From positions 49 through 64,048 of the forward strand of contig JAKAHY010000006.1 of NCBI GenBank assembly GCA_021814695.1: a stretch of 64,000 nucleotides of DNA, read 5' to 3'. The DNA is from a bacterium. GTDB lineage: Bacteria; Patescibacteriota; Minisyncoccia; UBA6257; JAGOQP01. A program made the position numbers and the translations under genes. Below are positions 1 through 47,060 of this stretch, one piece after another. Every line of letters starts with the position of its first letter. Position 1 is the first letter of the stretch. The notes under the pieces are model-generated. The model saw only the letters and a program-made list of their open reading frames with translations. It was not told the DNA's origin and did no database searches.

Positions 1-707
1 GCAAAGATACGGTATTTATATTGACCTCAATACAAAACTCCCCTTATCAGCCAATTATAAGGGGAGTTTTCTCATGAAAAATGCCCTCAGCGCCATTTTT
101 CATCAGCTTGCGATATTTCCGCCACATACCCAATCTTTGCGTCCGGCAGCCCAAAAAATCGACCCCTCACAAGCCATAAAATGGGTACTCGGTTTTTGGG
201 CTTATGCTTTTAGCAACTCAATATACATCAAAAGGATAAAATTTATTTGTGACTACTTGTGCGCAATCCTATATTGGATCGCTCACATCACTCAAATTCC
301 ACCTTGACAGACGACGATAGAAATAATTATACGTCCTCTATCAAGGTAGATTTGATATCGTACTAATAGAAATCTATACGTACGATATATGTTAGTAGGC
401 ATAACGTCTCTTCTCTCCACATTGTACGGGCTGGGGCGTACACGCCCCAGCCCTTGATAAAACAAGCACGCCTGTGCTTGTTCAACAAAAATTCAAGAGA
501 AAATTCTGTTTGATGATAATCGTAGCAAATAGAGTCTGAGTGGTAATGAATGCCGGAAATATAGGTTCCAGTTCTCTTTCTTTAGGGGAAGGAGCCTCGT
601 CGCAGCGCCTTCGGCGCCGCTCCTCGTACAAGATGGAATATGGGGGTACGGAGACGAATTATTTGTTTTTACTCCCATAATTTTTTGTTATATACTGTCT
701 GTGTCGT

Positions 708-825
708 CCCACAATTCAATCTCTTCAAAGGGTTTATTTTTACCGCAGTCCAATCGCGAGCAGTAAGGGGCAACTCGAAACCGCTCACGATTGGAACCCT
801 TTGAGCTAACAATTGTGGGACGACC
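708..825. promoter_or_regulatory. Nested imperfect inverted repeat (tcccacaattcaatctcttcaaagggtt ... aaccctttgagctaacaattgtggga, with inner ccaatcgcgagc...gctcacgattgg) upstream of the nuclease gene
   Basis: Palindromic arms read directly in the sequence; they lie in the 5' region of ORF 791..1330. Confidence 0.4.
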
Positions 826-853
826 GGGAGTAGGGTTGTCCCTTTTTGTTACT

Positions 854-1330
854 ATGATTTCTCCAAATAATCTTATAAAAGGTAGGATCGCTGAAAATAT
901 TGTGAGCGAAATGCTTCAAGAGGCGGGGTATTTTGTGTATCGTTTCGGATATGAAGGAGTTCTTCAGAGTCTTACACAGAAGGGGCTACCCAAAATGAAG
1001 CTAAATACTATTCCAGCTCAAAAAATAAGAACAATGCCAGATTTTATTGTTATGGATAAAGAAGGGAACGTTTTCTTTGTTGAGGTCAAATTCAGAAGCA
1101 ACGGAGAAAAAGACCCAATTTTCAAAGAGTGGCTAAAAAGGGCCGTGCGATATTGGCCAGAAGCTAAACTTCTGCTAGTTCATTTACATGAGCCGTATTT
1201 TCAAATCTCCACAATCTTGGATTATATGAAGTGTAATAAACTTTATCCTTTGGATCGTGACCGTTTTCTGTCAGTTGACAAGCAGTTTTTAGTGAAATAT
1301 TCCAAGCTTATCGGCAAATATATGTCTTAA
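854..1330 (+). CDS. Hjc/Holliday-junction-resolvase-like PD-(D/E)xK nuclease (ORF 791 start probably too early, MISPNN start preferred)
   Basis: KGRIAENIVSEMLQEAGY N-terminal motif and PDFIVMDKEGNVFFVEVKF (PD...E-V-K) catalytic signature. Confidence 0.55.
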   Translation: MISPNNLIKGRIAENIVSEMLQEAGYFVYRFGYEGVLQSLTQKGLPKMKLNTIPAQKIRTMPDFIVMDKEGNVFFVEVKFRSNGEKDPIFKEWLKRAVRYWPEAKLLLVHLHEPYFQISTILDYMKCNKLYPLDRDRFLSVDKQFLVKYSKLIGKYMS

Positions 1331-1901
1331 ACATCCTGCAAAGTTATTCACTCTGTCCAGTTGACATATTATACGAAAGGTATAACATGTAAGAGTCAGC
1401 ACATTGACACCGGTTAAAATCAAGTGGTTATTTATCCGTTTATTTAAGACGCTAAAACGTCTGAACTCCCCTTTATGTGTGGAAGGGAACAGTTCATGCA
1501 CCGGGCATGTATCTTCTTGTCCCATAGACTTTCTGTAGACGATCTAGGTCATATAAGCCGACTGGCTATGAGACTTAGTTTGCAGATAGCTGGTCCATAG
1601 AGATTGTGCACGATACAAGTGGTTATTTAACACCATTCTCGTGGTCGTTAAATTCCTGCGTAATGCTATTTTCGGAATCAATGACCACGGAGAAATGGCG
1701 GGTAACCACAATTTATTATTAAAGTCGTAAGTTTCCCTTACAACATATATGACAAATTCAATTACCACGTTTCGTTTCGGTTTTAGCTGGAGCATTACGC
1801 TTGTGGGGGCGATGAAAAATGTTAATTCGAATTTTACGAATAATCTACAAGATTCTTCGTATATTGTTCGACATCATCGAGTAGTCGCCCACTAACCTCA
1901 C

Positions 1902-2249
1902 ATGCATACATTCACAGAATTATTAAAAAATATTAGGGAAGAAGGAGAGCTAACACAAGAAGAATTGGCGCGTGCAATAGGCGTTTCCACAATCTTAATA
2001 TCCATGGTTGAGAGTGGCCAAAAAGATGTGTCGAAAAATCTTGTAGTAAGGCTTGCGAAAGGACTCGACGTTCATCCCAGCTCAATCGCTCCCTTTGCAT
2101 TCATCGATAAGAGCTCCGAATTGAAAAAGACCACTGGCATAGAAAAAACGCTGGTGTCTTTGGGTGAAAGATTACAAGATCATTTAATCATGATCAAGTC
2201 AAAGAGATTAAAAAAATATGTTTCGCGCCCAGAGATATCCGCGAATTAA
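1902..2249 (+). CDS. HTH XRE-family transcriptional regulator
   Basis: LTQEELARAIGVSTILISMVESGQKDVS helix-turn-helix; overlaps the downstream RT gene by 32 nt (operon). Confidence 0.7.
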   Translation: MHTFTELLKNIREEGELTQEELARAIGVSTILISMVESGQKDVSKNLVVRLAKGLDVHPSSIAPFAFIDKSSELKKTTGIEKTLVSLGERLQDHLIMIKSKRLKKYVSRPEISAN

Positions 2250-3189
2250 TATAAGGAGCAAGAATGAATTAGGGAAGCGCATTTCACCGAACAAACTACA
2301 ATTTCCTAAAACTCTCCAACTCATCAATGATGCATTGTCTAATTTTGATAAACAGTGGTACGACAGTGAACGCTCTGAGCCAGAGAAGGGAAAGTTTGTG
2401 CGAAGCGCTGTGGGAACTTCTCTTGGAAAATTACTTAAGCTTATAGACAGAAAGATTCTTGCTCCATACGATAGCTTAATACCGGATTTTATCTTTGGTG
2501 GTTTGTCTGGAAAAAGTCATATTCAGGCTGGCAGTTATTTATTGGGAAATAGACGCGAGAGAACATTGCTACGCCTAGATGTCTTTAGATTCTTTGAACA
2601 GATCCGGGAGCAAAGAGTTTTCAATTTCTTTTATGCGAAGTGCGGATGTAGTCAAAAAGCTGCTCGATTGATTTCTGGCCTTTGTTGCGTACCTTTGGGC
2701 CAAAAAGGATCTGGGTGTACTCAAAAAAGTTTGGCTCGTGGTTTTGCTACGTCGCCACGTCTCTCTATATGGTGCAACTTGGATATATTTTTAAGGTTGA
2801 GTTGGATGGTAAAGAAACAACTTCGTAACCATGATCCCAAAATTGCTGTTTATATTGATGATATCGGCATTACAGCTAGCCGGGTAAAAAAAGAACAAAT
2901 TGAAAAAGTGGCGCTACTCGCAGTGAAGATACTCACTGATTTTGATAGCAACCAATCACTCCCGATCAATCCTGAGAAAAAGGAAATTCTATCTGGTGCT
3001 GGCAAGATGAAACATCTCGGACTGAAATTGGGTAGAAATAAACTATCTATTGGAAATAAGGCGTTTTCTAAACTATTAGAAGTTAGACGTAAGTTAAAAA
3101 GCTCAGTATCGAAACGAGAGAGGTCGCGGCTAGTAAAGAAATACAAATCATACAAGAAATATAAACACCAGGTTATGAGGGCCAAATAG
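2218..3189 (+). CDS. Small (323 aa) retron/Abi-like reverse transcriptase with basic C-terminal tail
   Basis: RT motifs FGGLSGKS (1), LRLDVFRFFEQI (A), VFNFF...LISGLC (retron-like spacer, cf. Ec86 VFNLF...LTELC), ATSPRLSIWCNLDI (B), VYIDDIGI (C, YxDD), HLGLKLG (E); no maturase or endonuclease domain. Confidence 0.75.
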   Translation: MFRAQRYPRINIRSKNELGKRISPNKLQFPKTLQLINDALSNFDKQWYDSERSEPEKGKFVRSAVGTSLGKLLKLIDRKILAPYDSLIPDFIFGGLSGKSHIQAGSYLLGNRRERTLLRLDVFRFFEQIREQRVFNFFYAKCGCSQKAARLISGLCCVPLGQKGSGCTQKSLARGFATSPRLSIWCNLDIFLRLSWMVKKQLRNHDPKIAVYIDDIGITASRVKKEQIEKVALLAVKILTDFDSNQSLPINPEKKEILSGAGKMKHLGLKLGRNKLSIGNKAFSKLLEVRRKLKSSVSKRERSRLVKKYKSYKKYKHQVMRAK

Positions 3190-3246
3190 CCAATACTTCA
3201 TCACTACATATTATAATATTAATAAAAATAATTAGGATTATTGCTT

Positions 3247-4158
3247 ATGGCAAATAGTCATGATGCGAAATGGAAAAAGTTTGAGAAGGTTGTATATGAT
3301 ATACAAAAAGAATTAGCTCCTGATTCTGAAGTTAAGCTAGATGACGCTATCACAGGAGAAGACTCTAAGGTATCTCGCCAAATTGATATCAGCATCCGCC
3401 GCAATATAGGACAATACTCAATTCTGATTGTTATCGATTGTAAGGACTATGGTGTGCCGATCGACGTAAAAGATCTTGGTGAATTTGCTACTCTAGTCAA
3501 AGACGTAAGAGCTCACAAGGGCGCAATGATTTCTAGCAAGGGTTTTACGCCAGCCGCAGTAAGCTTGGCAAAAGCTCGTGGCATTGACACATTCACATTG
3601 ATAGATACTGAAAGCGTTGATTGGAAGGCATATGCCACAATTCCTGTATTATTGAGGAGTACTAATCTAAAAAGTTTTAGAGTAATATACAAAAACTTCC
3701 AAATTCTTCCTAGGGAGATTGTAGTCGCCGACCACAAGAAGCTGAAATTATATTCTCAGCAGCAAAAATTTATAGGCACCATTGGACGCTTAGTGCTTGA
3801 TAAATGGAATAATAAAGAAATAGAACATGCGTCTGGAGAGCACGAGGTTTTATTATCGGAAAATATTATGTTGGAAATAAATAGTCAGAAGTTTGGGCCG
3901 TTAGATGTAGCTGCTGTTGTATTGGTAGAGGAACACACTTATTTTAGCGATCTCCCGGTACACCTGAAAGGTTTTCATGATGCGCAAAAAGGTGGTGTAA
4001 TTACTAAATCGTTCGAAACGGACAAAATTTGGCCGGCAAAGATAGAGCAGGGATTAGTAGAGGGTTGGAGAGAGCTTAAGAATCCTACCGAACTATCGAT
4101 ACAACCACTTTTAGAATTCTATGTGTATGATTCCTATCCTAAAGAGGAGGTGGAGTAA
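3247..4158 (+). CDS. Mrr-like (restriction endonuclease, PD-(D/E)xK) N-terminal domain protein with unknown C-terminal domain; putative effector of the RT system
   Basis: ILIVIDCKDYGVPIDVKDLGEFATLVKDVRAHKGAMISSKGFTPAAVSLAKARGIDTFTLID matches the Mrr_cat pattern (QCK...V...F.G....KG.F.T.S.FT..A...A...I.LIDG). Confidence 0.65.
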   Translation: MANSHDAKWKKFEKVVYDIQKELAPDSEVKLDDAITGEDSKVSRQIDISIRRNIGQYSILIVIDCKDYGVPIDVKDLGEFATLVKDVRAHKGAMISSKGFTPAAVSLAKARGIDTFTLIDTESVDWKAYATIPVLLRSTNLKSFRVIYKNFQILPREIVVADHKKLKLYSQQQKFIGTIGRLVLDKWNNKEIEHASGEHEVLLSENIMLEINSQKFGPLDVAAVVLVEEHTYFSDLPVHLKGFHDAQKGGVITKSFETDKIWPAKIEQGLVEGWRELKNPTELSIQPLLEFYVYDSYPKEEVE

Positions 4159-4240
4159 AAAATGTAGATTATACTTTATAAATATGCTACGAAGGCATTA
4201 ATTTTCTTACCAACCCAACCATTTTTTGTAACAATTTTAT

Positions 4241-4723
4241 ATGAAATCAAACAATGATTTGGTAAAAGATATCAGAGATAAAATAGTATTCGTAACTGCA
4301 ATTGCAATTTTCTTTTTACCCTTCATGTATTCTGCATTCAGAGCTGTAGAAATGAATGATGCTAAATCGAATAGTGAGGTGCTTCCTTGGGGAGTCGGAA
4401 TTGCTTTTTATATACTCATTTACTTTTTTGTAGGTATGGTAAATGAAAAAACAAACACCCGCTGGCTCGATTGGATTAGGGGATTCATTGTTGCTGGCAC
4501 AATTGCCTTTGTTATACCCATATTTTGCGAAGCTCTCTACTATAACAAGCCACTTCCGGCATACATATATTGGCCCTTTTTGATTTCGATTGGAGCAATG
4601 GCATTATTGCCGCTCTTAACATTTATCTTGGTGCTAGGCTGTCTCTATTTGGAAATAATCCGCAATATTGTCTTAATAATGATTAAGAAAATTAAACACA
4701 AGAAAACAATCAGATTGCAGTAG
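4241..4723 (+). CDS. Small polytopic membrane protein, unknown function
   Basis: 4-5 hydrophobic helices; follows the RT/Mrr pair. Confidence 0.5.
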   Translation: MKSNNDLVKDIRDKIVFVTAIAIFFLPFMYSAFRAVEMNDAKSNSEVLPWGVGIAFYILIYFFVGMVNEKTNTRWLDWIRGFIVAGTIAFVIPIFCEALYYNKPLPAYIYWPFLISIGAMALLPLLTFILVLGCLYLEIIRNIVLIMIKKIKHKKTIRLQ

Positions 4724-4902
4724 GTTGTTATAGGATTGAGACTTTGCATCTACCTGCGTGTTGCGTCCTTTTCATCAAAATAGGTTCTAATCTGTTCCAA
4801 TCCCTTCCGCAGTAAGAACTTTTTATCGGGAGACCCGAGTGATATCGACAAAGATGTGGTCTGTTCGCCTAAGCATTTCAAAAATATCTAAACACTTAGA
4901 AA

Positions 4903-5646
4903 ATGGAATTCAATCAAAACAACAACATTGTTAGACTTTGTCTTCGGGGGATAGGCATGGAACAGAAAGATAAACCAGAAGAAGCAAGCAGATTGTTTCT
5001 TCAGGCCTGGGATGAAGCGACAAACGATTTTGAAAAATTTATTTCAGCTAATTATATAGCCCGACATCAGAAAAATGCTTCCGACAAATTACAATGGCTC
5101 GAAACGGATTTACGGCTTGCATTAAAAATCAACGACGACACAGTAAAGAGTGCTTTTCCTCCTCTCTATTTAAATATCGCCAAATGCTATGAGGAGTTGG
5201 GCAATTTTGATAGAGCGAAAGAGAATTATGCATTGGCAACTTCGTTTAAGGACGAGCCCACAGATAAAGGCCCTTTTTATCACGGGACGAAAGCGGACTT
5301 GAAAGTTGGAGATTTGCTGGCGGCAGGAGGCGATTCTAATTACAAATCCGAAATCAAAATGAACCATATTTATTTTACCGCTCTTGTTCATGGGGCGGGA
5401 CTAGCCGCTTCGTTGGCAAAAGGCGATGGACGAGAACGTGTTTATATCGTTGAGCCAACAGGAGGTTTTGAAAATGATCCTAACGTTACAAACAACTACT
5501 TTCCCGGCAATCCGACGCGCTCGTATCGCTCTCAAGCGCCATTGAAAATCGTCGGCGAAGTAACCAATTGGATGAAAATTACACCCGAGGAACTCCAAAA
5601 ATGGCGGGAAAAGTTAGCTAACAATAAAGGAGAAATTATAAATTAA
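4903..5646 (+). CDS. TPR-like N-terminal domain fused to Arr-family (rifampin ADP-ribosyltransferase-like) domain
   Basis: C-terminal half FYHGTKADLKVGDLL...SNY...HIYFTA...RVYIVEPTGGFENDPNVTNNYFPGNPTRSYRSQAPLKIVGEV is near-collinear with Arr-2 (FYHGTKA..GDLL, IVEPTGPFEDDPNLT, FPGNPTQSYR, PLRIVG). Confidence 0.7.
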   Translation: MEFNQNNNIVRLCLRGIGMEQKDKPEEASRLFLQAWDEATNDFEKFISANYIARHQKNASDKLQWLETDLRLALKINDDTVKSAFPPLYLNIAKCYEELGNFDRAKENYALATSFKDEPTDKGPFYHGTKADLKVGDLLAAGGDSNYKSEIKMNHIYFTALVHGAGLAASLAKGDGRERVYIVEPTGGFENDPNVTNNYFPGNPTRSYRSQAPLKIVGEVTNWMKITPEELQKWREKLANNKGEIIN

Positions 5647-5693
5647 TTTTTGAAATGCCATTGACCGAATCAGGATTCTAACCGAGATTTGAA

Positions 5694-5725
5694 ACAAAAA
5701 TCCGCAAATAGCGGAATTTTTGTTT
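5694..5725. terminator. Bidirectional hairpin between convergent genes
   Basis: caaaaatccgcaaatagcggaatttttg. Confidence 0.4.
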
Positions 5726-5824
5726 ACCAGATAAAAGGAATCAGCGCTTTGGTCCTTTTTTTATATTCCGGATAAGCGTCGGGGAATTGTTCGGTCATTA
5801 TTTTTTCTTCAGCGGGTATTCTTA

Positions 5825-6304
5825 TTAAAAAAATACAGTAGCAATCAAAAATAATATAAACCAGGGAACTCCAATAACCAGAGCTGTTCCAAAAGCCCCC
5901 AAAATCATTCCGGTATAAATCGGATGCCGGACGTATCGGTATGGACCGGAAGTTACCAGTTCGTGATCAATCTTGTGTGTCGGATAATTGCTCCAGTTTC
6001 TGCCCAAATGAATTCTGGACCAAACCGAAAATCCGAGTCCGGCAATAACTAAAATTACTCCGAATATTTCTATATATGTTATTTCACGCGAGGTGAATGA
6101 TTTTACCGCTTGTCCAAAAGACAACTTAGCTTTATCGTTAAATTCCAAAAGAGCAATTACTAAAATCGCGATAATTACTCGTATCCACCACCAATTTTTC
6201 CAGCTTGATTTATCGGCATTCTTTTTAACGTTAAAAGCGGATACCAACCAGAAGATAAGCCAAGCCAGCCACAGGATTCCGACTATCGGACCTAATATTT
6301 TCAT
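5825..6304 (-). CDS. Isoprenylcysteine carboxyl methyltransferase (ICMT)/phospholipid methyltransferase family membrane protein
   Basis: HELVTSGPYRYVRHPIYTG motif, multiple TM helices. Confidence 0.75.
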   Translation of the reverse strand: MKILGPIVGILWLAWLIFWLVSAFNVKKNADKSSWKNWWWIRVIIAILVIALLEFNDKAKLSFGQAVKSFTSREITYIEIFGVILVIAGLGFSVWSRIHLGRNWSNYPTHKIDHELVTSGPYRYVRHPIYTGMILGAFGTALVIGVPWFILFLIATVFF

Positions 6305-6319
6305 AAATGTAATATATTT

Positions 6320-6670
6320 TTAAGCCACGCGGACAACAATAATCAGCGTTCCTATAACCACAAGCCCGAGCCACACTTTTGCGGCATATTTATCGAGGGT
6401 GTCTCCGCCTATCCACTGGAAAAGAGTTTTGTCGTCTCCATAGCGCTGATGGACCGCATTCAATGGGCATTCTCCCTTACTGAACAGAAGAATAATTCCT
6501 TCAACTCCGTGAGCGGTGATCGCCAGCCATGTCCAGAAGGTGGCTATTCCAAACAGCGCGGAATACCAGATGTAAGAAACGGCGGTAGTATAAAAAACTC
6601 CGATTACGGCATGGAGGGCCCTGAGTTTGTAAAACATCGGATGATTATTTTTGTCTTCATTCATATTCAC
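6320..6670 (-). CDS. Small membrane protein (DUF2784-like)
   Basis: Hydrophobic helices, conserved ECPLN motif. Confidence 0.45.
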   Translation of the reverse strand: MNMNEDKNNHPMFYKLRALHAVIGVFYTTAVSYIWYSALFGIATFWTWLAITAHGVEGIILLFSKGECPLNAVHQRYGDDKTLFQWIGGDTLDKYAAKVWLGLVVIGTLIIVVRVA

Positions 6671-6753
6671 AATTATAACTCTATTTTAAAAAAAGTTATA
6701 TTTGTCCCGATATTAATTATGGTGTGGTAATATAAATCAAAACCTATCAGTTT

Positions 6754-7518
6754 ATGTCCGACAACCAAGAATATTTCAATCAAATAAAGCAGGAGTGCAT
6801 CAACGAATGTAAAACACATTCTCTTAAGGAAGTAGCCGAAGGAATGTTTGCCACAGAAGAAGTGGCCGATTTATTTTTGAAACAGGAAAAAGAAGATGAG
6901 GCGTATTCTTTTATTATTGATTTGATCGGCAAATATTTTACCAGAGAGGCAGGGGGTAAGATATATATTCCCGGAAGCGGAACGGGAGGATTAGCGAGAA
7001 GAATTATGGATGATTATCCCAAGATGACGGTTATCCAGATTGATAGTAGCCCAAAGATGAGTGAGGCCAATAAAAAAGCATCTAAAAATTATAAGAACAC
7101 CGATATTTTGCAGGGCGACATCCTTAATTTAAAGCAAAGTCCCAAATCCGTAAGTGCCATAATTTCCTACGGAGTAATGCGATATATTCCGGAAGATAAA
7201 AGAAATAATTTAGTGTCTTCGTGGGCCTTAGCTCTGGTAAAAAATGGGATAGTTATAGTAGGCGAGGGAATAGCAAAAGACGTTATCGATGGGATAAGCT
7301 CTCAGGGATATGCTTCCGAGAAACTCTTTGAAAGAGACGCCAAACTTTTCAGAAATTCTTTATTTTATACGTTATTAAAACGTTATCATTCGGACAATAA
7401 ATTCAGAGGCATCGTGAATGGTGAAGCGTCTGATAATAACCTGAGTTTTGCGGATGTTTTAAATAAAATAGCCGGATATGCTCATGGAAAAATTTATGTG
7501 AAGGTTTTACAAAAGTGA
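6754..7518 (+). CDS. Class I SAM-dependent methyltransferase
   Basis: IYIPGSGTGGLARRIMDDYPKMTVIQIDSSPKM (motif I and post-I). Confidence 0.65.
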   Translation: MSDNQEYFNQIKQECINECKTHSLKEVAEGMFATEEVADLFLKQEKEDEAYSFIIDLIGKYFTREAGGKIYIPGSGTGGLARRIMDDYPKMTVIQIDSSPKMSEANKKASKNYKNTDILQGDILNLKQSPKSVSAIISYGVMRYIPEDKRNNLVSSWALALVKNGIVIVGEGIAKDVIDGISSQGYASEKLFERDAKLFRNSLFYTLLKRYHSDNKFRGIVNGEASDNNLSFADVLNKIAGYAHGKIYVKVLQK

Positions 7519-7983
7519 CCGTCGTCTTTAGTCGGAATTTTGAAACGGTAAAATTCGCCCGAAAAAAAGGGACGCCGGATGGCGCCCTGAGTGGGAGAGT
7601 GTTCGAGTGCTGATTCGACTTGTTTCGCCTCGGCCGTCGCCTTGCTCTAGAGGATGATCACCTTCTTCATTTCTTGCCTCCTTTCCAGGCCCGAACAAGT
7701 GCTCGCGTCCGCCGTACGCGGTCGCCTATTCATATTAATACAATCGATATTTATTTTCAATAAAAAAAGAGAGACGGCCACGTGGGACGTCTCGGTGTAC
7801 TGGGATGGGGCAAAGCCCCGAAAAACGAAACAAGGTGCTGTATATTCGAGAAAGCTCTCGATTGCAGCGCATGGACTAGCCTAAGCGCTTCATAAATCTA
7901 GTATAGCACATATTTTGATTTTGCTGTGGATAACTCGGAGAGGTTGCCAGACCTCGGATTTTCTGATATTCTAAGAACCAATT

Positions 7984-9504
7984 ATGTCTTCTAATAAAGC
8001 CCAAAACGCGGGGCAGGCTCCGCTTAATAACCCGACTCAAAAACCGCTATCTGTCGGAGGCAATACCGGCGCCCTTAAGGCGCGCCCGCCGATTGTGGTG
8101 GTAATGGGCCACGTTGACCATGGCAAAACCACTCTCTTGGATTACATTCGAAAAACGAAAGTAGCCGAACGTGAGGCGGGCGGAATCACCCAATCTATCG
8201 GTGCTTATGAAATAGAAAAAAATGGGCAGAAGATGACATTTATAGATACGCCCGGACACGAAGCGTTTACAAAAATGCGTCAGAGAGGAGCCCATGTTGC
8301 CGATATCGGGATTTTAGTTATCGGCGCCGATGATGGAGTTAAGCCGCAAACCGAAGAAGCGATAGCAATTTTGCAGAATTCGAACACTCCTTTTGCGGTC
8401 GCAATAAATAAAATAGACAAAAACAACGCCGATATTGAGAGAACAAAAAATGACCTGCTTAAACACGGCGTTCTTTTGGAGGGATTTGGAGGAAACATTT
8501 CATGGTGCGCGATATCGGCAAAGCAGGGAGAAGGCGTGGATGAGCTTTTGGATTTGGTTTTGTTAATGTGGCAGGTTGAAAATCTTACTTACAATCCATC
8601 CGTCCCGGCCAAGGGATTTATTATAGAAGCCAAAGTAGACAGCAGGAGAGGGGCCGCCGTTTCGGTAGTCGTTACCGACGGCATTATTCGTGAAGGTAAT
8701 GATATTGCGACGCCGACAGCCTGCGGAAAAATAAAAATGCTTGAAAATTTTTTGGGAAAAAGAGTTACGGAACTTGCTCCTTCCAGCCCGGCTCTTATTT
8801 TAGGATTTGAAAGCCTACCTTCCGTGGGGCAATCTTTCACTGCCGGAGATCTTGAACTTGAAATTGCTCCTAATTTGGCCCCGGGATTGAAACCGAAAAT
8901 GAATCTTAGCGAAACCGAAAAAGAAACCATGATGCCGGTTATGATTAAAGCAGACGTTTCCGGTTCTTTGGAAGCATTGGCGCATGTTATCGGAGCTTTA
9001 GAGATTGACGGGAAAAAATTCAAAATTGTTTCCGAGGAGGTCGGAGAAATTACCGATGGCGACATAAAAGATGCCAGCGCTACGGGGTCTATTGTTGTAG
9101 GATTCAATACAAAAATCATCAAATCGGCTGATAACTTAGCCAGAGGCCAGAATGTCAGAGTTGTAACTTCAAATATCATTTATAGAATTGTAGAGGCTCT
9201 CGAGGAGTCTATTAGAGCCATTGAGGGGGGTGAAAAGGGACCGACAATGGAAGTGCTTGCGATATTCAGCCAGAAAGGAAAAAAACAACTCGTCGGAGGG
9301 AAAATATTATCCGGAATATTTACGCTAAACCAAAAGGTTAATATATTAAGACAGGACAAAGCCGTCGGTGCCGGAAGAATAACCAGTTTGCAGCAGGGAA
9401 AGGCGGTTGTTAAAAAAGTTTCCGAAGGAGAATTCGGGCTTATGGTTGAATCTTCGGTCGTTGTCCAGGTGGGAGATGTGCTTGAAATAGAATATACCAA
9501 ATAA
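7984..9504 (+). CDS. infB: Translation initiation factor IF-2 (short form)
   Basis: GHVDHGKTTLLD, DTPGHEAF, NKIDK GTPase motifs and conserved C-terminal domains. Confidence 0.92.
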   Translation: MSSNKAQNAGQAPLNNPTQKPLSVGGNTGALKARPPIVVVMGHVDHGKTTLLDYIRKTKVAEREAGGITQSIGAYEIEKNGQKMTFIDTPGHEAFTKMRQRGAHVADIGILVIGADDGVKPQTEEAIAILQNSNTPFAVAINKIDKNNADIERTKNDLLKHGVLLEGFGGNISWCAISAKQGEGVDELLDLVLLMWQVENLTYNPSVPAKGFIIEAKVDSRRGAAVSVVVTDGIIREGNDIATPTACGKIKMLENFLGKRVTELAPSSPALILGFESLPSVGQSFTAGDLELEIAPNLAPGLKPKMNLSETEKETMMPVMIKADVSGSLEALAHVIGALEIDGKKFKIVSEEVGEITDGDIKDASATGSIVVGFNTKIIKSADNLARGQNVRVVTSNIIYRIVEALEESIRAIEGGEKGPTMEVLAIFSQKGKKQLVGGKILSGIFTLNQKVNILRQDKAVGAGRITSLQQGKAVVKKVSEGEFGLMVESSVVVQVGDVLEIEYTK

Positions 9505-43905: not shown

Positions 43906-44649
43906 ATGGCCAAGAAAGCGACCAAGCAGAACCCCGCAGTCAACCTGAAGGTGTACGTGAAGCTCGACCCCGAGGCGCAGGTGATGTTCAACCACCAGCG
44001 TCGCGACCAGGCCGTCAGCTTCCCCGCCGTGGTGGCGACCGTCGCGACCATGATCAAGGGCGGCAGCGACATCACCGGCGCGCAGGAGGACGACAAGTAC
44101 GTCGTCACCCTGGACGCCGGACAGCTCGCCGAGGTGTTCGCCGAGGCGCGCGAGTACCAGGCGACGCTCCCGGCCACCGTGGAGATCGCCAAGCAGGCGA
44201 TCTCGACCGCCGATCAGGCGATCGAGTTCGCTCGCAAGAACAACAGCGGGCTCGACCTGTCGCAGGCCGAGGCCAAGCTGAGCACGGCGCAGGCCATGCT
44301 CAAGAGGCTGGTGTTCGGCAAGAAGAGCGACGACTTCCGCGAGGTGGTGGAGACGGCGCACGATGCCGCCAACACCGCCAAGCAGGCCGTCGTCGACCTG
44401 CTCAAGGTCAAGGCCGCCGGCCTCGCCAAGGAGACCGACACGCTCGACGAGTTGTCGCTCGTCCTCTCCGACCTCCCCAGCGACCTCGACCAGGCCCGCA
44501 AGGCCTTGGTCGAGTTCGTCAAGACGGCTCGTACGCTCCGCGTCCCGGCCCGCCCGGCCAACACCAACAAGCCGAACGATGGCCACCTGCGCGAGCGCGT
44601 CGGAACCGGCGTGTTCGGCCGCACCGGCGGCTACACCGGCCGCAAGTAG
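43906..44649 (+). CDS. Hypothetical protein, ~65% GC (foreign), good GGAGGA RBS
   Basis: Strong GC3 codon bias in a 40% GC genome; all six frames are open, the other five taken as artefacts. Confidence 0.55.
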   Translation: MAKKATKQNPAVNLKVYVKLDPEAQVMFNHQRRDQAVSFPAVVATVATMIKGGSDITGAQEDDKYVVTLDAGQLAEVFAEAREYQATLPATVEIAKQAISTADQAIEFARKNNSGLDLSQAEAKLSTAQAMLKRLVFGKKSDDFREVVETAHDAANTAKQAVVDLLKVKAAGLAKETDTLDELSLVLSDLPSDLDQARKALVEFVKTARTLRVPARPANTNKPNDGHLRERVGTGVFGRTGGYTGRK

Positions 44650-44694
44650 GCCCTCTCACCCCTGACGAATCTTTCGTCAGGAACTCCAACAACC

Positions 44695-44742
44695 CGAACC
44701 TCAGGCAATCCCGCCTGAGGTTCTTACTTTTTTCCTGGGAGC
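44695..44742 (+). terminator. Rho-independent terminator gaacctcaggcaatcccgcctgaggttcttactttttt
   Basis: 11-bp stem plus T-tract. Confidence 0.6.
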
Positions 44743-44758
44743 ATAGCTCCAATCGCTG

Positions 44759-44775
44759 AAAGGTGCGGGATTTTT
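44759..44775 (+). repeat. Orphan copy of the AAAGGTGCGGGATTTTT repeat
   Basis: Identical to the right-hand repeats at 43061, 45807 and 47431. Confidence 0.6.
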
Positions 44776-44808
44776 ATTAAATACGGATTTATACGGATAC
44801 GAGAGTAT

Positions 44809-44837
44809 TTGACACAACAATGATTTTGGTATATTAT
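44809..44837 (+). promoter_or_regulatory. Sigma70-like promoter TTGACA-17-TATTAT
   Basis: ttgacacaacaatgattttggtatattat, preceded by direct repeat atacggatttatacggatac. Confidence 0.5.
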
Positions 44838-44857
44838 ATAGACAGTATATTCAAATA

Positions 44858-44921
44858 GTAGGAATGAGCTGACTAACCATATGAATCCGTGTTGCAATGT
44901 GAATAGTCAGCTCGTTCCTAC
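44858..44921 (+). promoter_or_regulatory. 18-bp-stem hairpin in the 5'UTR just upstream of the RBS of ORF 44948
   Basis: gtaggaatgagctgacta...tagtcagctcgttcctac. Confidence 0.5.
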
Positions 44922-44947
44922 AAAGAGCAGAAAGAAAGGAGAATGCG

Positions 44948-45718
44948 ATGTACGACGATAGGAGAGAGGTTAAAGACCCGATGTTCCAGTTTTTTCTGGA
45001 ACAGCAGCGCCACCAGGGTGCCGGATTTGGAATTATGTCCGAGATTTGCACCCTTTCCCGGGAACATCACCAGGCGGTTCTCAAACAGGACTGGCCGGGA
45101 GCTGATGAGCTCGAGGACAAGATGCGGGCCAAGTGGATGGCTTTGACCCAGAAGAACATCATGGGCCGGACCCACATCAAGATTGCCGAAATGTCGGCAA
45201 CCGAGATGCTGGAAGCGTTTTTTGTCCGGGAGGTGTTCTGGGAGATTGCTACAAATCGGACATCGAGTTTCAATCCTTCAGATTTCAAGAAGTACGCGGA
45301 GACATGGTCGGAAGCGTTCCAACTTCCGAAAGATTCTCCCATCGATTACCAGTGGATTATCGCCGGCTGGTTGGACGCCGCCAGTGAGATCTACAAGATG
45401 TTGGTGATTCTGATCAACAGCAGGTATTACTCGGATGGAGATAAATTGTCCATCTGGGAGAGCTACTGCGCGCTCCTCTCTGCTGTTCATGAGGCTTTTG
45501 CTCTCTACGAGCTGATCGCCTCCAGCGTCATCGACAACGGGCAGGGACGTGTGCCCTGGCCAATGACGTTTCGCGGCAAGATGCAAAAGCTCCAAAACCA
45601 CATTACCGAAACTCACGAAAGGATTCAGTATTATCGTGAGCGGACCGCGGACAGGGTGGATCGCGAGGTCCTCATGTCCAAGATCGAAGCCGTGATTGGT
45701 CTCCTTTCCCGCAAGTAA
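44948..45718 (+). CDS. Hypothetical protein (~52% GC)
   Basis: ORF with AAAGGAG RBS and downstream terminator ccgggttgcgaaagcaaccca-T7 at 45726-45750. Confidence 0.55.
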   Translation: MYDDRREVKDPMFQFFLEQQRHQGAGFGIMSEICTLSREHHQAVLKQDWPGADELEDKMRAKWMALTQKNIMGRTHIKIAEMSATEMLEAFFVREVFWEIATNRTSSFNPSDFKKYAETWSEAFQLPKDSPIDYQWIIAGWLDAASEIYKMLVILINSRYYSDGDKLSIWESYCALLSAVHEAFALYELIASSVIDNGQGRVPWPMTFRGKMQKLQNHITETHERIQYYRERTADRVDREVLMSKIEAVIGLLSRK

Positions 45719-45752
45719 GCGGGGCCGGGTTGCGAAAGCAACCCATTTTTTT

Positions 45753-45819
45753 ATCCCGCACCTTTAATTTTCAATTAAAACAGGACGAGTAAAACTCGAG
45801 CAAACTAAAGGTGCGGGAT
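45753..45819. mobile_element. Empty inverted-repeat pair atcccgcaccttt...(41 bp)...aaaggtgcgggat (miniature, gene-less element)
   Basis: Same repeats that bracket the GIY-YIG genes, here with a 41-bp spacer. Confidence 0.45.
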
Positions 45820-45860
45820 AATCCTCCGAAGCTTTATGCAAAGGAGGATTCATAGACCGT

Positions 45861-47060
45861 TTGCCTTTAGGTGATATTTTTCATAGAATAAAACTTACCT
45901 ACACCAGCTTTATGAAAAGAGAACACATTGTCGCCAAAGATCCGGACAGCGAAAAACTCCTTTCCGAACTCAAACAAAGGGAAGACACTAACGGGCTAAG
46001 AATGCGTCGGTTGATTGAACTTCCGGATTTATCCAGAAAAGAAAATTCTCCCATAAAATTTATAGTAGACAGGATTTTGGGGATCAAAGATTTTGAAAAT
46101 TTTGATATATTGGAATTTCCCGAAATTGTCAGTGTGCGGGACAATTTTGACTTGCTTAACGCTCCGGCCGACCACCCCAGCCGAAAAGAAACCGATACTT
46201 ATTATGTGGACAAAGACCATGTTTTAAGAACTCAAACGACCGTAATGTGGCCGTATTATCTCCAGCGGCCGGACACTTTGGATAAACTGAATAACGAAGG
46301 AGAGGTCGGCTTATTGAGCTATGGCAAGGTCTATAGAAAGGACGAAATAGACAGGAATCATTTTCCGATATTTCATCAGGTGGACGGACTTTATATTTGT
46401 AAAAAAGAGAAAAAGATTTTGGGAATTCCCGAATTGCAGGAAGTGCTTTCGGCTATTACTAAAGCTATCTACGGAGAATCGGTTGAATATAGATTTTTGG
46501 AAGACACATTTCCTTTCACGGATCCAAGCACTCAGATTGAAATTAAGGTGGGCGATGCATGGCTTGAAGTTGTCGGTGCCGGAGTTGTTCATACTCAAGT
46601 TTTAAAAAATTTGAATATTGACCCGGAAATTTACAACGGGTGGGCATTCGGTTTCGGGTTGGAACGCCTGGCAATGGTGAAAAACGGAATTTCCGATATC
46701 AGAGTTTTCTGGTCCGATGACCCAAGAATTACGAGCCAGTTTAAGGATATAAACAGTCAATATAAAGAAGTCAGCAAATTTCCGATGACTTACCGTGATA
46801 TTTCATTTGTTGTCAATAAAAATATAAGCCTCAACAATTATTACGAGATTGTCAGGGACTGTGCGGGCAACCTGGTTGAGGAAGTAAAGCTTTCGGACCA
46901 GTATGAAGACGTCATAAAATTCGGCGCGGATAAAATCAGTTATACATTCAGGATTGTTTATCGCTCTCCCGAAAGGACATTAACCAATGAAGAAGTTAAT
47001 CAGATTCAGGACAGGATTATTCAAAAAACAGCCCAGGAGTTGAATGCGACAATAAGGTAA
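45861..47060 (+). CDS. Monomeric (mitochondrial-type) phenylalanyl-tRNA synthetase: PheS catalytic core plus C-terminal FDX-ACB anticodon-binding domain
   Basis: Class II motifs (FPFTDPSTQIEI, WLEVVGAGVVHTQVL, GFGLERLAMVKNGISDIR) and C-terminal FPMTYRDISFVV...YTFRIVYRSPERTLTNEEVN resembling the PheT/mito-PheRS C-terminus. Confidence 0.75.
   Translation: MPLGDIFHRIKLTYTSFMKREHIVAKDPDSEKLLSELKQREDTNGLRMRRLIELPDLSRKENSPIKFIVDRILGIKDFENFDILEFPEIVSVRDNFDLLNAPADHPSRKETDTYYVDKDHVLRTQTTVMWPYYLQRPDTLDKLNNEGEVGLLSYGKVYRKDEIDRNHFPIFHQVDGLYICKKEKKILGIPELQEVLSAITKAIYGESVEYRFLEDTFPFTDPSTQIEIKVGDAWLEVVGAGVVHTQVLKNLNIDPEIYNGWAFGFGLERLAMVKNGISDIRVFWSDDPRITSQFKDINSQYKEVSKFPMTYRDISFVVNKNISLNNYYEIVRDCAGNLVEEVKLSDQYEDVIKFGADKISYTFRIVYRSPERTLTNEEVNQIQDRIIQKTAQELNATIR

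Follow-up and report, generated by a model that had tools for sequence, protein, structure and literature searches.

The subject of this analysis is a locus in a 64,000-nucleotide (nt) stretch of DNA, here called the window, from contig JAKAHY010000006.1 of a bacterium of the Patescibacteria, or candidate phyla radiation (CPR). The locus spans positions 1361-3189 and comprises a promoter, a structured leader, a gene for a small helix-turn-helix (HTH) protein and a gene for a reverse transcriptase (RT); its features and those of the neighbouring genes are collected in Table 1. The HTH and RT genes overlap by 32 nt, and a gap of 571 nt (1331-1901) separates the HTH gene from the open reading frame (ORF) upstream. 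We found that this gap folds far better than shuffled sequence (z = -6.07). An earlier note on this DNA had described the HTH and RT ORFs, the motifs of the RT, its lysine-rich tail and the 32-nt overlap, and all of these are present, with Pfam HTH_3 and RVT_1 matching the two proteins. The note had also pointed to the gap (as 570 bp), to short hairpins within it and to a 14-nt direct repeat at 1421 and 1616, and had considered the gap a plausible site for an RNA. The repeat is there, one such hairpin (agacgctaaaacgtct) lies at 1447-1462, and the gap indeed contains covarying helices, as described below.

Profile comparisons assigned the RT to the retrons. The PADLOC model RT_VI matched it with 96 bits (E = 5.8e-28) over profile positions 2-272 of 279, whereas the second-ranked model reached 50 bits. 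Models for DRT, UG and Abi reverse transcriptases were not the best match in PADLOC (Drt3a 29 bits and UG26 27 bits, against 96 for RT_VI), and the NCBIfam model Drt3a scored 27 bits, far under its cut-off of 200. RT_VI also matched 26 of 26 sampled members of the RT family, with the lowest best E-value of all models and with RT_IV second, which agrees with the published grouping of types IV, V and VI. A tblastn search of the RT against plasmids and phages recovered distant retron RTs only (23-29% identity), and PDB sequence searches with the RT, and with the Mrr-like protein encoded downstream of it, gave no match. Mestre et al. (2020) defined type VI retrons by a clade-3 RT that is accompanied by small auxiliary proteins and by a Cro/C1 HTH protein, likewise small; the HTH protein in the window has 115 amino acids (aa), compared with the 91-110 aa described for the type. 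On these matches, we conclude that the RT is a retron reverse transcriptase of the type VI clade. The earlier note had proposed a retron-type RT defence module, which the RT_VI and HTH_VI matches support, and had suggested that its architecture might be undescribed. It is not, because the RT and HTH proteins match type VI profiles, the layout is that of Retron-Vpa2 and Retron-Sen3, and a Candidatus Levybacteria retron is among the type VI entries already listed (Garcia-Rodriguez et al., bioRxiv 10.64898/2026.04.27.721009). The locus thus represents a known type of anti-phage system in which the layout of the effector is a variant, and its host is a Patescibacteria bacterium with a tiny genome.

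We assessed conservation in 67 genome loci with RT homologues. The RT has 253 homologues; the 120 matches listed have 49-66% identity, and nearly all of these 120 come from Patescibacteria, as do nearly all of the 67 loci. The HTH-RT pair is kept in about 60 of the 67 loci. An HTH match is missing at L019, L026, L053, L054 and L062, and in L026, L054 and L062 the contig ends just upstream of the RT gene. About 540 nt upstream of the HTH gene could be aligned end to end by iterative nhmmer in about 45 loci (60-313 bits). Clustering of all flanking ORFs in the 67 loci yielded no recurrent partner gene beside the HTH-RT pair. Large serine recombinases lie within 4 kb of the retron in seven loci (L002, L009, L012, L021, L031, L037 and L061), as do DNA methyltransferases in seven (L023, L026, L027, L039, L041, L054 and L066), and these neighbours suggest that the retron occupies variable or mobile regions. 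Some loci (L002, L010, L017, L033, L041-L043 and L045) are in bins labelled Planctomycetota, Micrarchaeota, Gammaproteobacteria or Bdellovibrionales; these labels could reflect mis-binned CPR contigs or genuine transfer.

Table 1. Features of the type VI retron locus and of its neighbours in the window. Delta denotes the result of the co-evolution scan (kcal/mol).
Feature	Position	Strand	Remarks
Upstream ORF	791-1330 (earlier note: 854-1330)		weak nuclease hints
Sigma-70-type promoter	1361-1388	+	TTGACA 1361-1366, 16-nt spacer, TAACAT 1383-1388; 10 of 12 consensus matches
Palindrome TATAC-N5-GTATA in promoter spacer	1370-1384	not applicable	arms nearly invariant across the family
Structured leader RNA, hybrid RNA (hyRNA) type	1393-1901	+	about 500 nt; 5' end inferred from promoter, 3' limit set at HTH start
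Closing helix	1410-1421 (CCGGUUAAAAUC) with 1779-1790	+	delta -6.1
Direct repeat CAAGTGGTTATTTA, 14 nt	copy 1 1421-1434; copy 2 1616-1629	+	
Hairpin AGACG/CGUCU	1447-1462	+	agacgctaaaacgtct; RNAalifold pairs, compensatory changes at 3 of 5
Hairpin with C/U-rich 5' arm and purine-rich 3' arm	1463-1495	+	covarying arms; delta -3.4
Long hairpin in the variable middle of the leader	1502-1612	+	candidate msd template by analogy
Helix P_out	1619-1626 with 1702-1709	+	71% of cells paired; 8 of 8 pairs change on both sides; delta -4.5
Helix P_in	1640-1649 with 1680-1689	+	86% of cells paired; 9 of 10 pairs change on both sides; delta -6.8
Pseudoknot, one arm in P_in loop	1658-1667 with 1791-1800	+	93-98% of cells paired; delta -6.8
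ORF-A	1749-1895	+	48 aa; open frame without peptide conservation
Helix P_SD	1807-1813 with 1884-1890	+	91-100% of cells paired, compensatory; delta -7.2, strongest in scan
ORF-B	1819-1884	+	21 aa, MLIRILRIIYKILRILFDIIE; amphipathic, cationic; +1 frame inside ORF-A
HTH gene	1902-2249	+	Cro/C1-type, 115 aa; Pfam HTH_3 2.6e-12, PADLOC HTH_VI 7.8e-13
RT gene	2218-3189	+	323 aa; RVT_1 7.7e-12, PADLOC RT_VI 5.8e-28; YIDD motif intact
Mrr-like protein	3247-4158	+	N-terminal Mrr_cat 3.1e-10, residues 9-122 counted from a start at 3241
Small hydrophobic ORF	4241-4723		160 aa
TPR and Arr-ms protein	4903-5646		Pfam 4.9e-46

In the promoter region, a cTTGAC box and a TATAAT-like box form the most conserved block of the family alignment. 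The palindrome between them occurs once in the window, where 0.03 occurrences are expected. A single copy stands at this same place in 43 of the 67 RT loci, those of distant Saccharibacteria included. We regard the palindrome as probably the operator of the HTH protein.

Downstream of the promoter, we found that compensatory changes conserve five helices and a pseudoknot in the leader RNA. Base pairs were counted explicitly in 42 loci, with slid partners and 500 shuffles as controls: 81.9% of the counted cells were paired, compared with 31-45% when the partners were slid, and none of the 500 shuffles matched the observed values. We also ran a co-evolution scan, which compares duplex energies within and between loci; its peaks lie 6-10 standard deviations off a background with a standard deviation of 0.7 kcal/mol. 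The closing helix was judged by per-locus duplexes, since register shifts between subfamilies in the MAFFT alignment spoil column-wise counts, and it is present, with 7-14 bp, in 42 of 42 loci with 42 distinct arm sequences. It also forms in the unconstrained minimum-energy fold. The arms of the pseudoknot make up a perfect 10-nt inverted repeat in the window, and one of its pairs reads GC in 22, CG in 11, AU in five and UA in three members of the family. General RNA tools recovered less of this structure: because of indels, RNAalifold yielded fragments only, whether run on the nhmmer alignment or on the 5' domain aligned with MAFFT, where it gave one hairpin, and Rfam had no match in the leader, either in a permissive search of positions 1-8000 or at gathering thresholds over the whole window.

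The middle of the leader (about 1497-1612) is its least conserved part. It varies from 37 to 179 nt across loci and is mostly hairpin-forming, and no covariation could be demonstrated for the long hairpin that it forms in the window. Because this hairpin resembles the variable SL3 of Retron-Sen3 and the long stem-loop of Retron-Vpa2, it is, by analogy, a candidate template for reverse transcription (msd).

The direct repeat takes part in a second set of pairings. Copy 1 is an alternative partner of the 3' arms at 1680-1689 and 1702-1709, with a scan delta of -4.2, and its duplexes with the region of these arms (1676-1712) average -12.7 kcal/mol within a locus versus -9.4 between loci, a difference that none of 5000 permutations reached. 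In the unconstrained fold of 1393-1901 (-150.3 kcal/mol), copy 1 pairs with 1680-1688; the fold constrained by covariation, with P_out and P_in, has an energy of -150.1 kcal/mol. Because both sets of pairings co-evolve and the energies of the two conformers are nearly equal, the repeats look, from these calculations, like competing strands of a bistable element. Such an element agrees with the conserved repeats that the authors of the Vpa2 study tie to a riboregulator. The exact 14-nt repeat was also considered as a conserved feature in its own right and was rejected: there is only an enrichment, with a shared stretch of at least 8 nt in 27% of loci, versus 7.9% between loci.

The earlier note had seen no convincing ORF in the gap; we found two small ones, ORF-A and ORF-B, nested in different frames and conserved across about 50 loci. 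In a census of 52 loci, ORF-B is free of stops in 52 of 52. It starts with ATG in nearly all, and with TTG, GTG or CTG in three of the rest. Its columns have a coding periodicity, with an information content of 0.73, 1.31 and 0.45 bits at the first, second and third codon positions, and T occupies 59% of the second positions. The peptides that it encodes across loci are 19-31 aa long, with a hydrophobic moment of 0.66 and a net charge of +3.4. The binding energy of its ribosome-binding site to the 3' end of 16S rRNA averages -7.3 kcal/mol, compared with -2.1 for background genes. In the window this site, GGGGG at 1805-1809, is overlapped by the 5' arm of P_SD. A conserved CCCU element at 1735-1738, upstream of ORF-A, co-evolves weakly with the same site (delta -2.1) and may be a second, alternative sequestering element. 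From these properties of its sequence, the ORF-B peptide is a candidate toxic effector. We also observed a hairpin within ORF-B (1835-1846 with 1850-1861) that is 72% paired across loci and gives a co-evolution signal; the putative toxin coding sequence would therefore itself be constrained by RNA structure.

ORF-A differs from ORF-B in what is conserved. Its frame is likewise free of stops in 52 of 52 loci, whereas in the 5' part of ORF-A the other two frames are stopped in 45 and 46 of the 52. The ORF-A ATG and the ORF-B ATG are separated by 58-79 nt, a distance that changes by multiples of three only, and resampling gave a probability of 0.23 per locus that frame A would be open by chance given the ORF-B peptide. 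The ORF-A stop precedes the HTH ATG by 6 nt in the window and by 4-38 nt (median 11) across loci. The HTH gene itself has no ribosome-binding site across the loci, with a mean energy of +0.1 kcal/mol and 2% of loci reaching -4. Both arms of P_SD fall within ORF-A, as does the 3' arm of the closing helix and that of the pseudoknot. Because its frame is kept open without peptide conservation, we conclude from the sequence comparison that ORF-A appears to be selected for being translated through, not for its product.

This arrangement closely resembles that of Retron-Vpa2 of Vibrio parahaemolyticus, in which a hybrid RNA of about 470 nt combines the msr-msd with a translationally repressed toxic small protein (SP) and is followed by the HTH and RT genes (Zhang et al., bioRxiv 10.1101/2025.10.22.683967). 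Both have the order structured RNA, small ORF, HTH and RT. In both, the effector ORF is part of a leader RNA of about 470-500 nt, stems sequester its ribosome-binding site and start codon, there is a wrap-around helix of long range, short direct repeats are conserved, and the effector is small and has a hydrophobic helix. Like the hybrid RNAs delimited by Zhang et al. (2025), the predicted transcript joins a noncoding RNA (ncRNA) to an effector ORF, with a sequestered ribosome-binding site and a closing helix. The two systems differ in that the hydrophobic peptide has 19-31 aa here and 55 aa in Vpa2, that it is read here in the +1 frame within another conserved open frame, that the HTH gene here lacks a ribosome-binding site of its own, and that the hosts are CPR bacteria. 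Retron-Sen3 and the cl2075 lineage likewise have the order SP-HTH-RT, an ncRNA with covariation and pairing over a long range (Garcia-Rodriguez et al., bioRxiv 10.64898/2026.04.27.721009). The likeness extends to the variable long stem-loop of the ncRNA, to a long-range pairing that ties the ncRNA to the small-protein region, to the sequestered ribosome-binding site, and to RNA structure inside the putative toxin coding sequence, as reported for the Sen3 SP region. In contrast, the Sen3 small protein is a constitutive, single-frame product of 79 aa, and the long-range stem of Sen3 shows no significant covariation, whereas the long-range helices here covary strongly. A third relative is the type VI retron of Shewanella phage vB_SspS_MuM16-1 (MZ568827; PMC8541194), in which a gap of about 730 nt precedes an HTH gene that shares 26 nt with the RT gene, and a small ORF of 48 aa lies just 5' of the HTH gene; unlike the ORFs in the window, that ORF is single-frame, encodes a polar N-terminus and a hydrophobic C-terminal helix, and ends 46 nt before the HTH gene. 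The conserved ORFs at the position of the SP are nested and have 21 and 48 aa, whereas the described SPs are single-frame proteins of 55-79 aa. The original classification overlooked the RNA of type VI retrons, and of 779 type VI loci the hyRNA model published later covers 81. Among type VI entries that encode an HTH protein, about 27% have an SP from one of the four recognised clusters (Garcia-Rodriguez et al., bioRxiv 10.64898/2026.04.27.721009).

Given the two precedents, the retron could work in the manner of Sen3, with the peptide made constitutively, the HTH protein neutralising it after translation, and reverse transcription exerting no control over translation. Retron-Sen3 operates in this way, type VI retrons are mechanistically diverse, and the HTH gene here lies in tight linkage with the small-ORF region, to which its translation is probably coupled. 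We nevertheless consider this mode unlikely: P_SD, the helix with the strongest co-evolution in the RNA, locks the ribosome-binding site of ORF-B, and the P_SD lock and the CCCU element together point to translational repression as in Vpa2.

We also weighed whether the effector might be the 48-aa product of frame A, encoded in a single frame as in other type VI retrons, with ORF-B a by-product of constraint. Frame A has a conserved ATG in addition to its open frame, its length of 47-61 aa is near that of the small proteins of Vpa2 (55 aa) and the Shewanella phage (48 aa), and several loci, of Saccharibacteria, have a strong ribosome-binding site, AAGGAGG, ahead of it. However, over the 57 nt that the two frames share, frame B has an identity of 0.29 and a BLOSUM score of +0.88 per site, while frame A has 0.126 and -0.32 on the same bases. 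Moreover, the most conserved codon position of frame A is the third (1.31 bits), its composition, rich in N, D, H, S and Y, is that expected of a hydrophobic helix read out of frame, and it is frame B that combines a conserved ATG with by far the strongest ribosome-binding site. A frame-A effector is thus improbable. A programmed +1 frameshift fusing about 23 aa from the N-terminus of ORF-A with the helix of ORF-B is very improbable as well. Such a fusion would have about 45-50 aa and would resemble the Shewanella small protein in length and layout, with a polar N-terminus and a hydrophobic C-terminal helix as in proteobacterial small proteins, and a G-rich element resembling a ribosome-binding site lies just 5' of the junction. 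Yet no conserved slippery site is visible in the alignment, ORF-B begins with ATG in nearly all loci and with other start-type codons in the three mentioned above, and frame A stays open to a conserved stop of its own, for which a fusion has no need.

Together, these results make it likely that the locus at 1361-3189, taken as a whole, is a type VI retron, in which a promoter with its operator and a structured leader RNA of about 500 nt precede the HTH and RT genes, that it belongs to a clade found almost only in Patescibacteria, and that its effector is the ORF-B peptide, released much as in Vpa2. The HTH protein would repress the promoter through the palindrome, and HTH and RT together would bind the folded leader RNA and hold ORF-B silent. 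The RT would copy part of that RNA into single-stranded DNA, with the variable hairpin as the candidate template. On phage infection, reverse transcription or a build-up of msDNA (single-stranded DNA in multiple copies) would remodel the RNA, as in Retron-Vpa2; the repeats at 1421-1434 and 1616-1629 would supply the two conformers of nearly equal energy for the switch. Retron RTs in general make msDNA on an msd template, priming at a branching G beside an a1/a2 helix; the locus has the closing helix, and the variable hairpin as candidate template. The remodelled RNA would free the ribosome-binding site of ORF-B, and the peptide would damage the membrane and stop growth, an abortive infection. 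Translation of ORF-A would feed ribosomes to HTH and RT by termination and reinitiation. We infer that the system acts in anti-phage defence by abortive infection from its family membership and from its patchy distribution beside recombinases and methyltransferases.

Because ORF-A contains the 3' arms of three helices, its translation would be incompatible with the folded RNA. We offer a more specific proposal tentatively, as quite possible: the toxin of the CPR clade would be a 19-31-aa amphipathic peptide in the +1 frame of a conserved "transit" ORF, whose translation would unzip the closing helix, the pseudoknot and P_SD and bring ribosomes to HTH and RT. A transcript would then be either a folded template for the RT or a messenger, and the choice between the two would set the release of the toxin. 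Such a coupling switch, within a retron, would resemble the type I toxin-antitoxin system hok/mok/sok. There, a leader ORF, mok, overlaps a small membrane-active toxin ORF, the toxin is translated only if mok is translated, and the hok mRNA is closed by long-range pairing of its 5' and 3' ends. The likeness is a functional analogy only, as no antisense RNA is evident here and the module belongs to a retron with an RT and an HTH protein.

Several points weigh against the interpretation of the locus as a type VI retron with an ORF-B effector. The evidence on the clade is comparative sequence, and its RT is placed in type VI by profile scores. Khan et al., as cited in later work, could detect no reverse-transcribed DNA (RT-DNA) from the one type VI retron of CPR bacteria that has been tested in E. 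coli. The co-evolution scan is a purpose-built statistic, not R-scape, and the MAFFT alignments are rough in the 5' domain. In the window, ORF-A has no detectable ribosome-binding site (-0.1 kcal/mol). ORF-B is far shorter than the described small proteins (55 and 79 aa), and its profile gave no significant match to the small protein of the Shewanella type VI retron (E = 1.3).

The genes downstream of the RT stand apart from the retron. The earlier note had recognised an Mrr-type N-terminal domain in the protein that follows the RT, a small membrane protein behind it and an Arr-like protein further on, and our searches agree with each assignment: the first matches Mrr_cat, a hydrophobic ORF lies at the position of the second, and the third carries TPR and Arr-ms domains. 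In the Mrr-like protein, numbered from the ATG at 3247, E13 and K66 are invariant, D47 is conserved in at least 90% of homologues and D64 is the consensus residue; a structure model with a predicted local distance difference test (pLDDT) score of 91 and a Foldseek search confirm a PD-(D/E)xK fold. Its N-terminal domain resembles AF1548 and the catalytic domains of MspJI and AspBHI, and for its C-terminal, beta-rich domain, which is confidently modelled, Foldseek found no counterpart among solved structures. We found 60 homologues of about 300 aa, some on multi-megabase contigs that exceed the size of a CPR genome, and conclude that the protein is a two-domain family of its own. None of the five neighbourhoods of homologues that we examined contains an RT; the genes present there belong to integrases or resolvases, to a Mu-like prophage, to a Y1 transposase or to DUF1156/DUF499. 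The homologues were found in mobile or defence contexts of unrelated bacteria.

The earlier note had paired the RT with the Mrr-like nuclease. This pairing was seen in the present genome alone, and the gene trio is not conserved at homologous loci: none of the 67 RT loci carries a homologue of the Mrr-like, the membrane or the Arr gene. Because of this absence, because no flanking family recurs and because no RT accompanies the five Mrr-like homologues, we conclude that the Mrr-like and membrane proteins are not partners of the retron; both, like the Arr-like gene, are neighbours unrelated to it, the nuclease being an independent and probably mobile gene. It is therefore barely credible that the Mrr-like nuclease is the effector of a new RT defence system made up of HTH, RT and nuclease, and perhaps of the membrane protein too. 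In favour of such a system, the RT and nuclease genes are adjacent, 57 nt apart on one strand, the motif of the nuclease is intact and the arrangement is identical in the other assemblies of the same genome. Against it, the nuclease has a separate family, with neighbours of its own, and a conserved effector candidate is already encoded upstream of the HTH gene.

Upstream of the retron, the earlier note had proposed an Hjc-like nuclease. The longer ORF that we recognise there gave weak hints only (a PHROG endonuclease family, E = 0.0011; UPF0102/YraN, E = 0.077), and a homologue with 64% identity stands at the same position in the closest relative only (L001, 273-806). The protein encoded at 4903-5646 matches NCBIfam rifampin_ARR with 153 bits against a cut-off of 130 and has its TPR region N-terminal to the Arr domain; an Arr gene was an unexpected find in a genome of CPR type. 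Elsewhere in the window, we noted that an IF-2 homologue (7984-9504) has just 506 aa, that intergenic gaps are mostly below 100 bp, and that the G+C fraction jumps to 0.60 at 44001-46000, compared with about 0.42 in the rest, a segment in which Rfam detected no rRNA. The short IF-2, the narrow gaps and the relatives of the RT are consistent with a host among the Patescibacteria.

Our search for published work on retrons in Patescibacteria found none, and the literature on retrons in these bacteria or on "hyRNA" yielded nothing beyond the two type VI preprints. The nested effector layout and the RNA map were not found in the literature searched, the Vpa2 and Sen3 preprints included. What appeared to be a new architecture is a known system adjoining unrelated genes. 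Type VI is the least understood type of retron, and this clade provides more than 50 diverged loci with unusually clear covariation, from which we obtained a full helix map, a putative bistable element that would explain the repeats, and a probable operator. The two-frame arrangement makes the proposed link between RNA folding, translation and toxin release directly testable. These findings also document a widespread candidate for an abortive-infection-type system in bacteria with very small genomes, the CPR.

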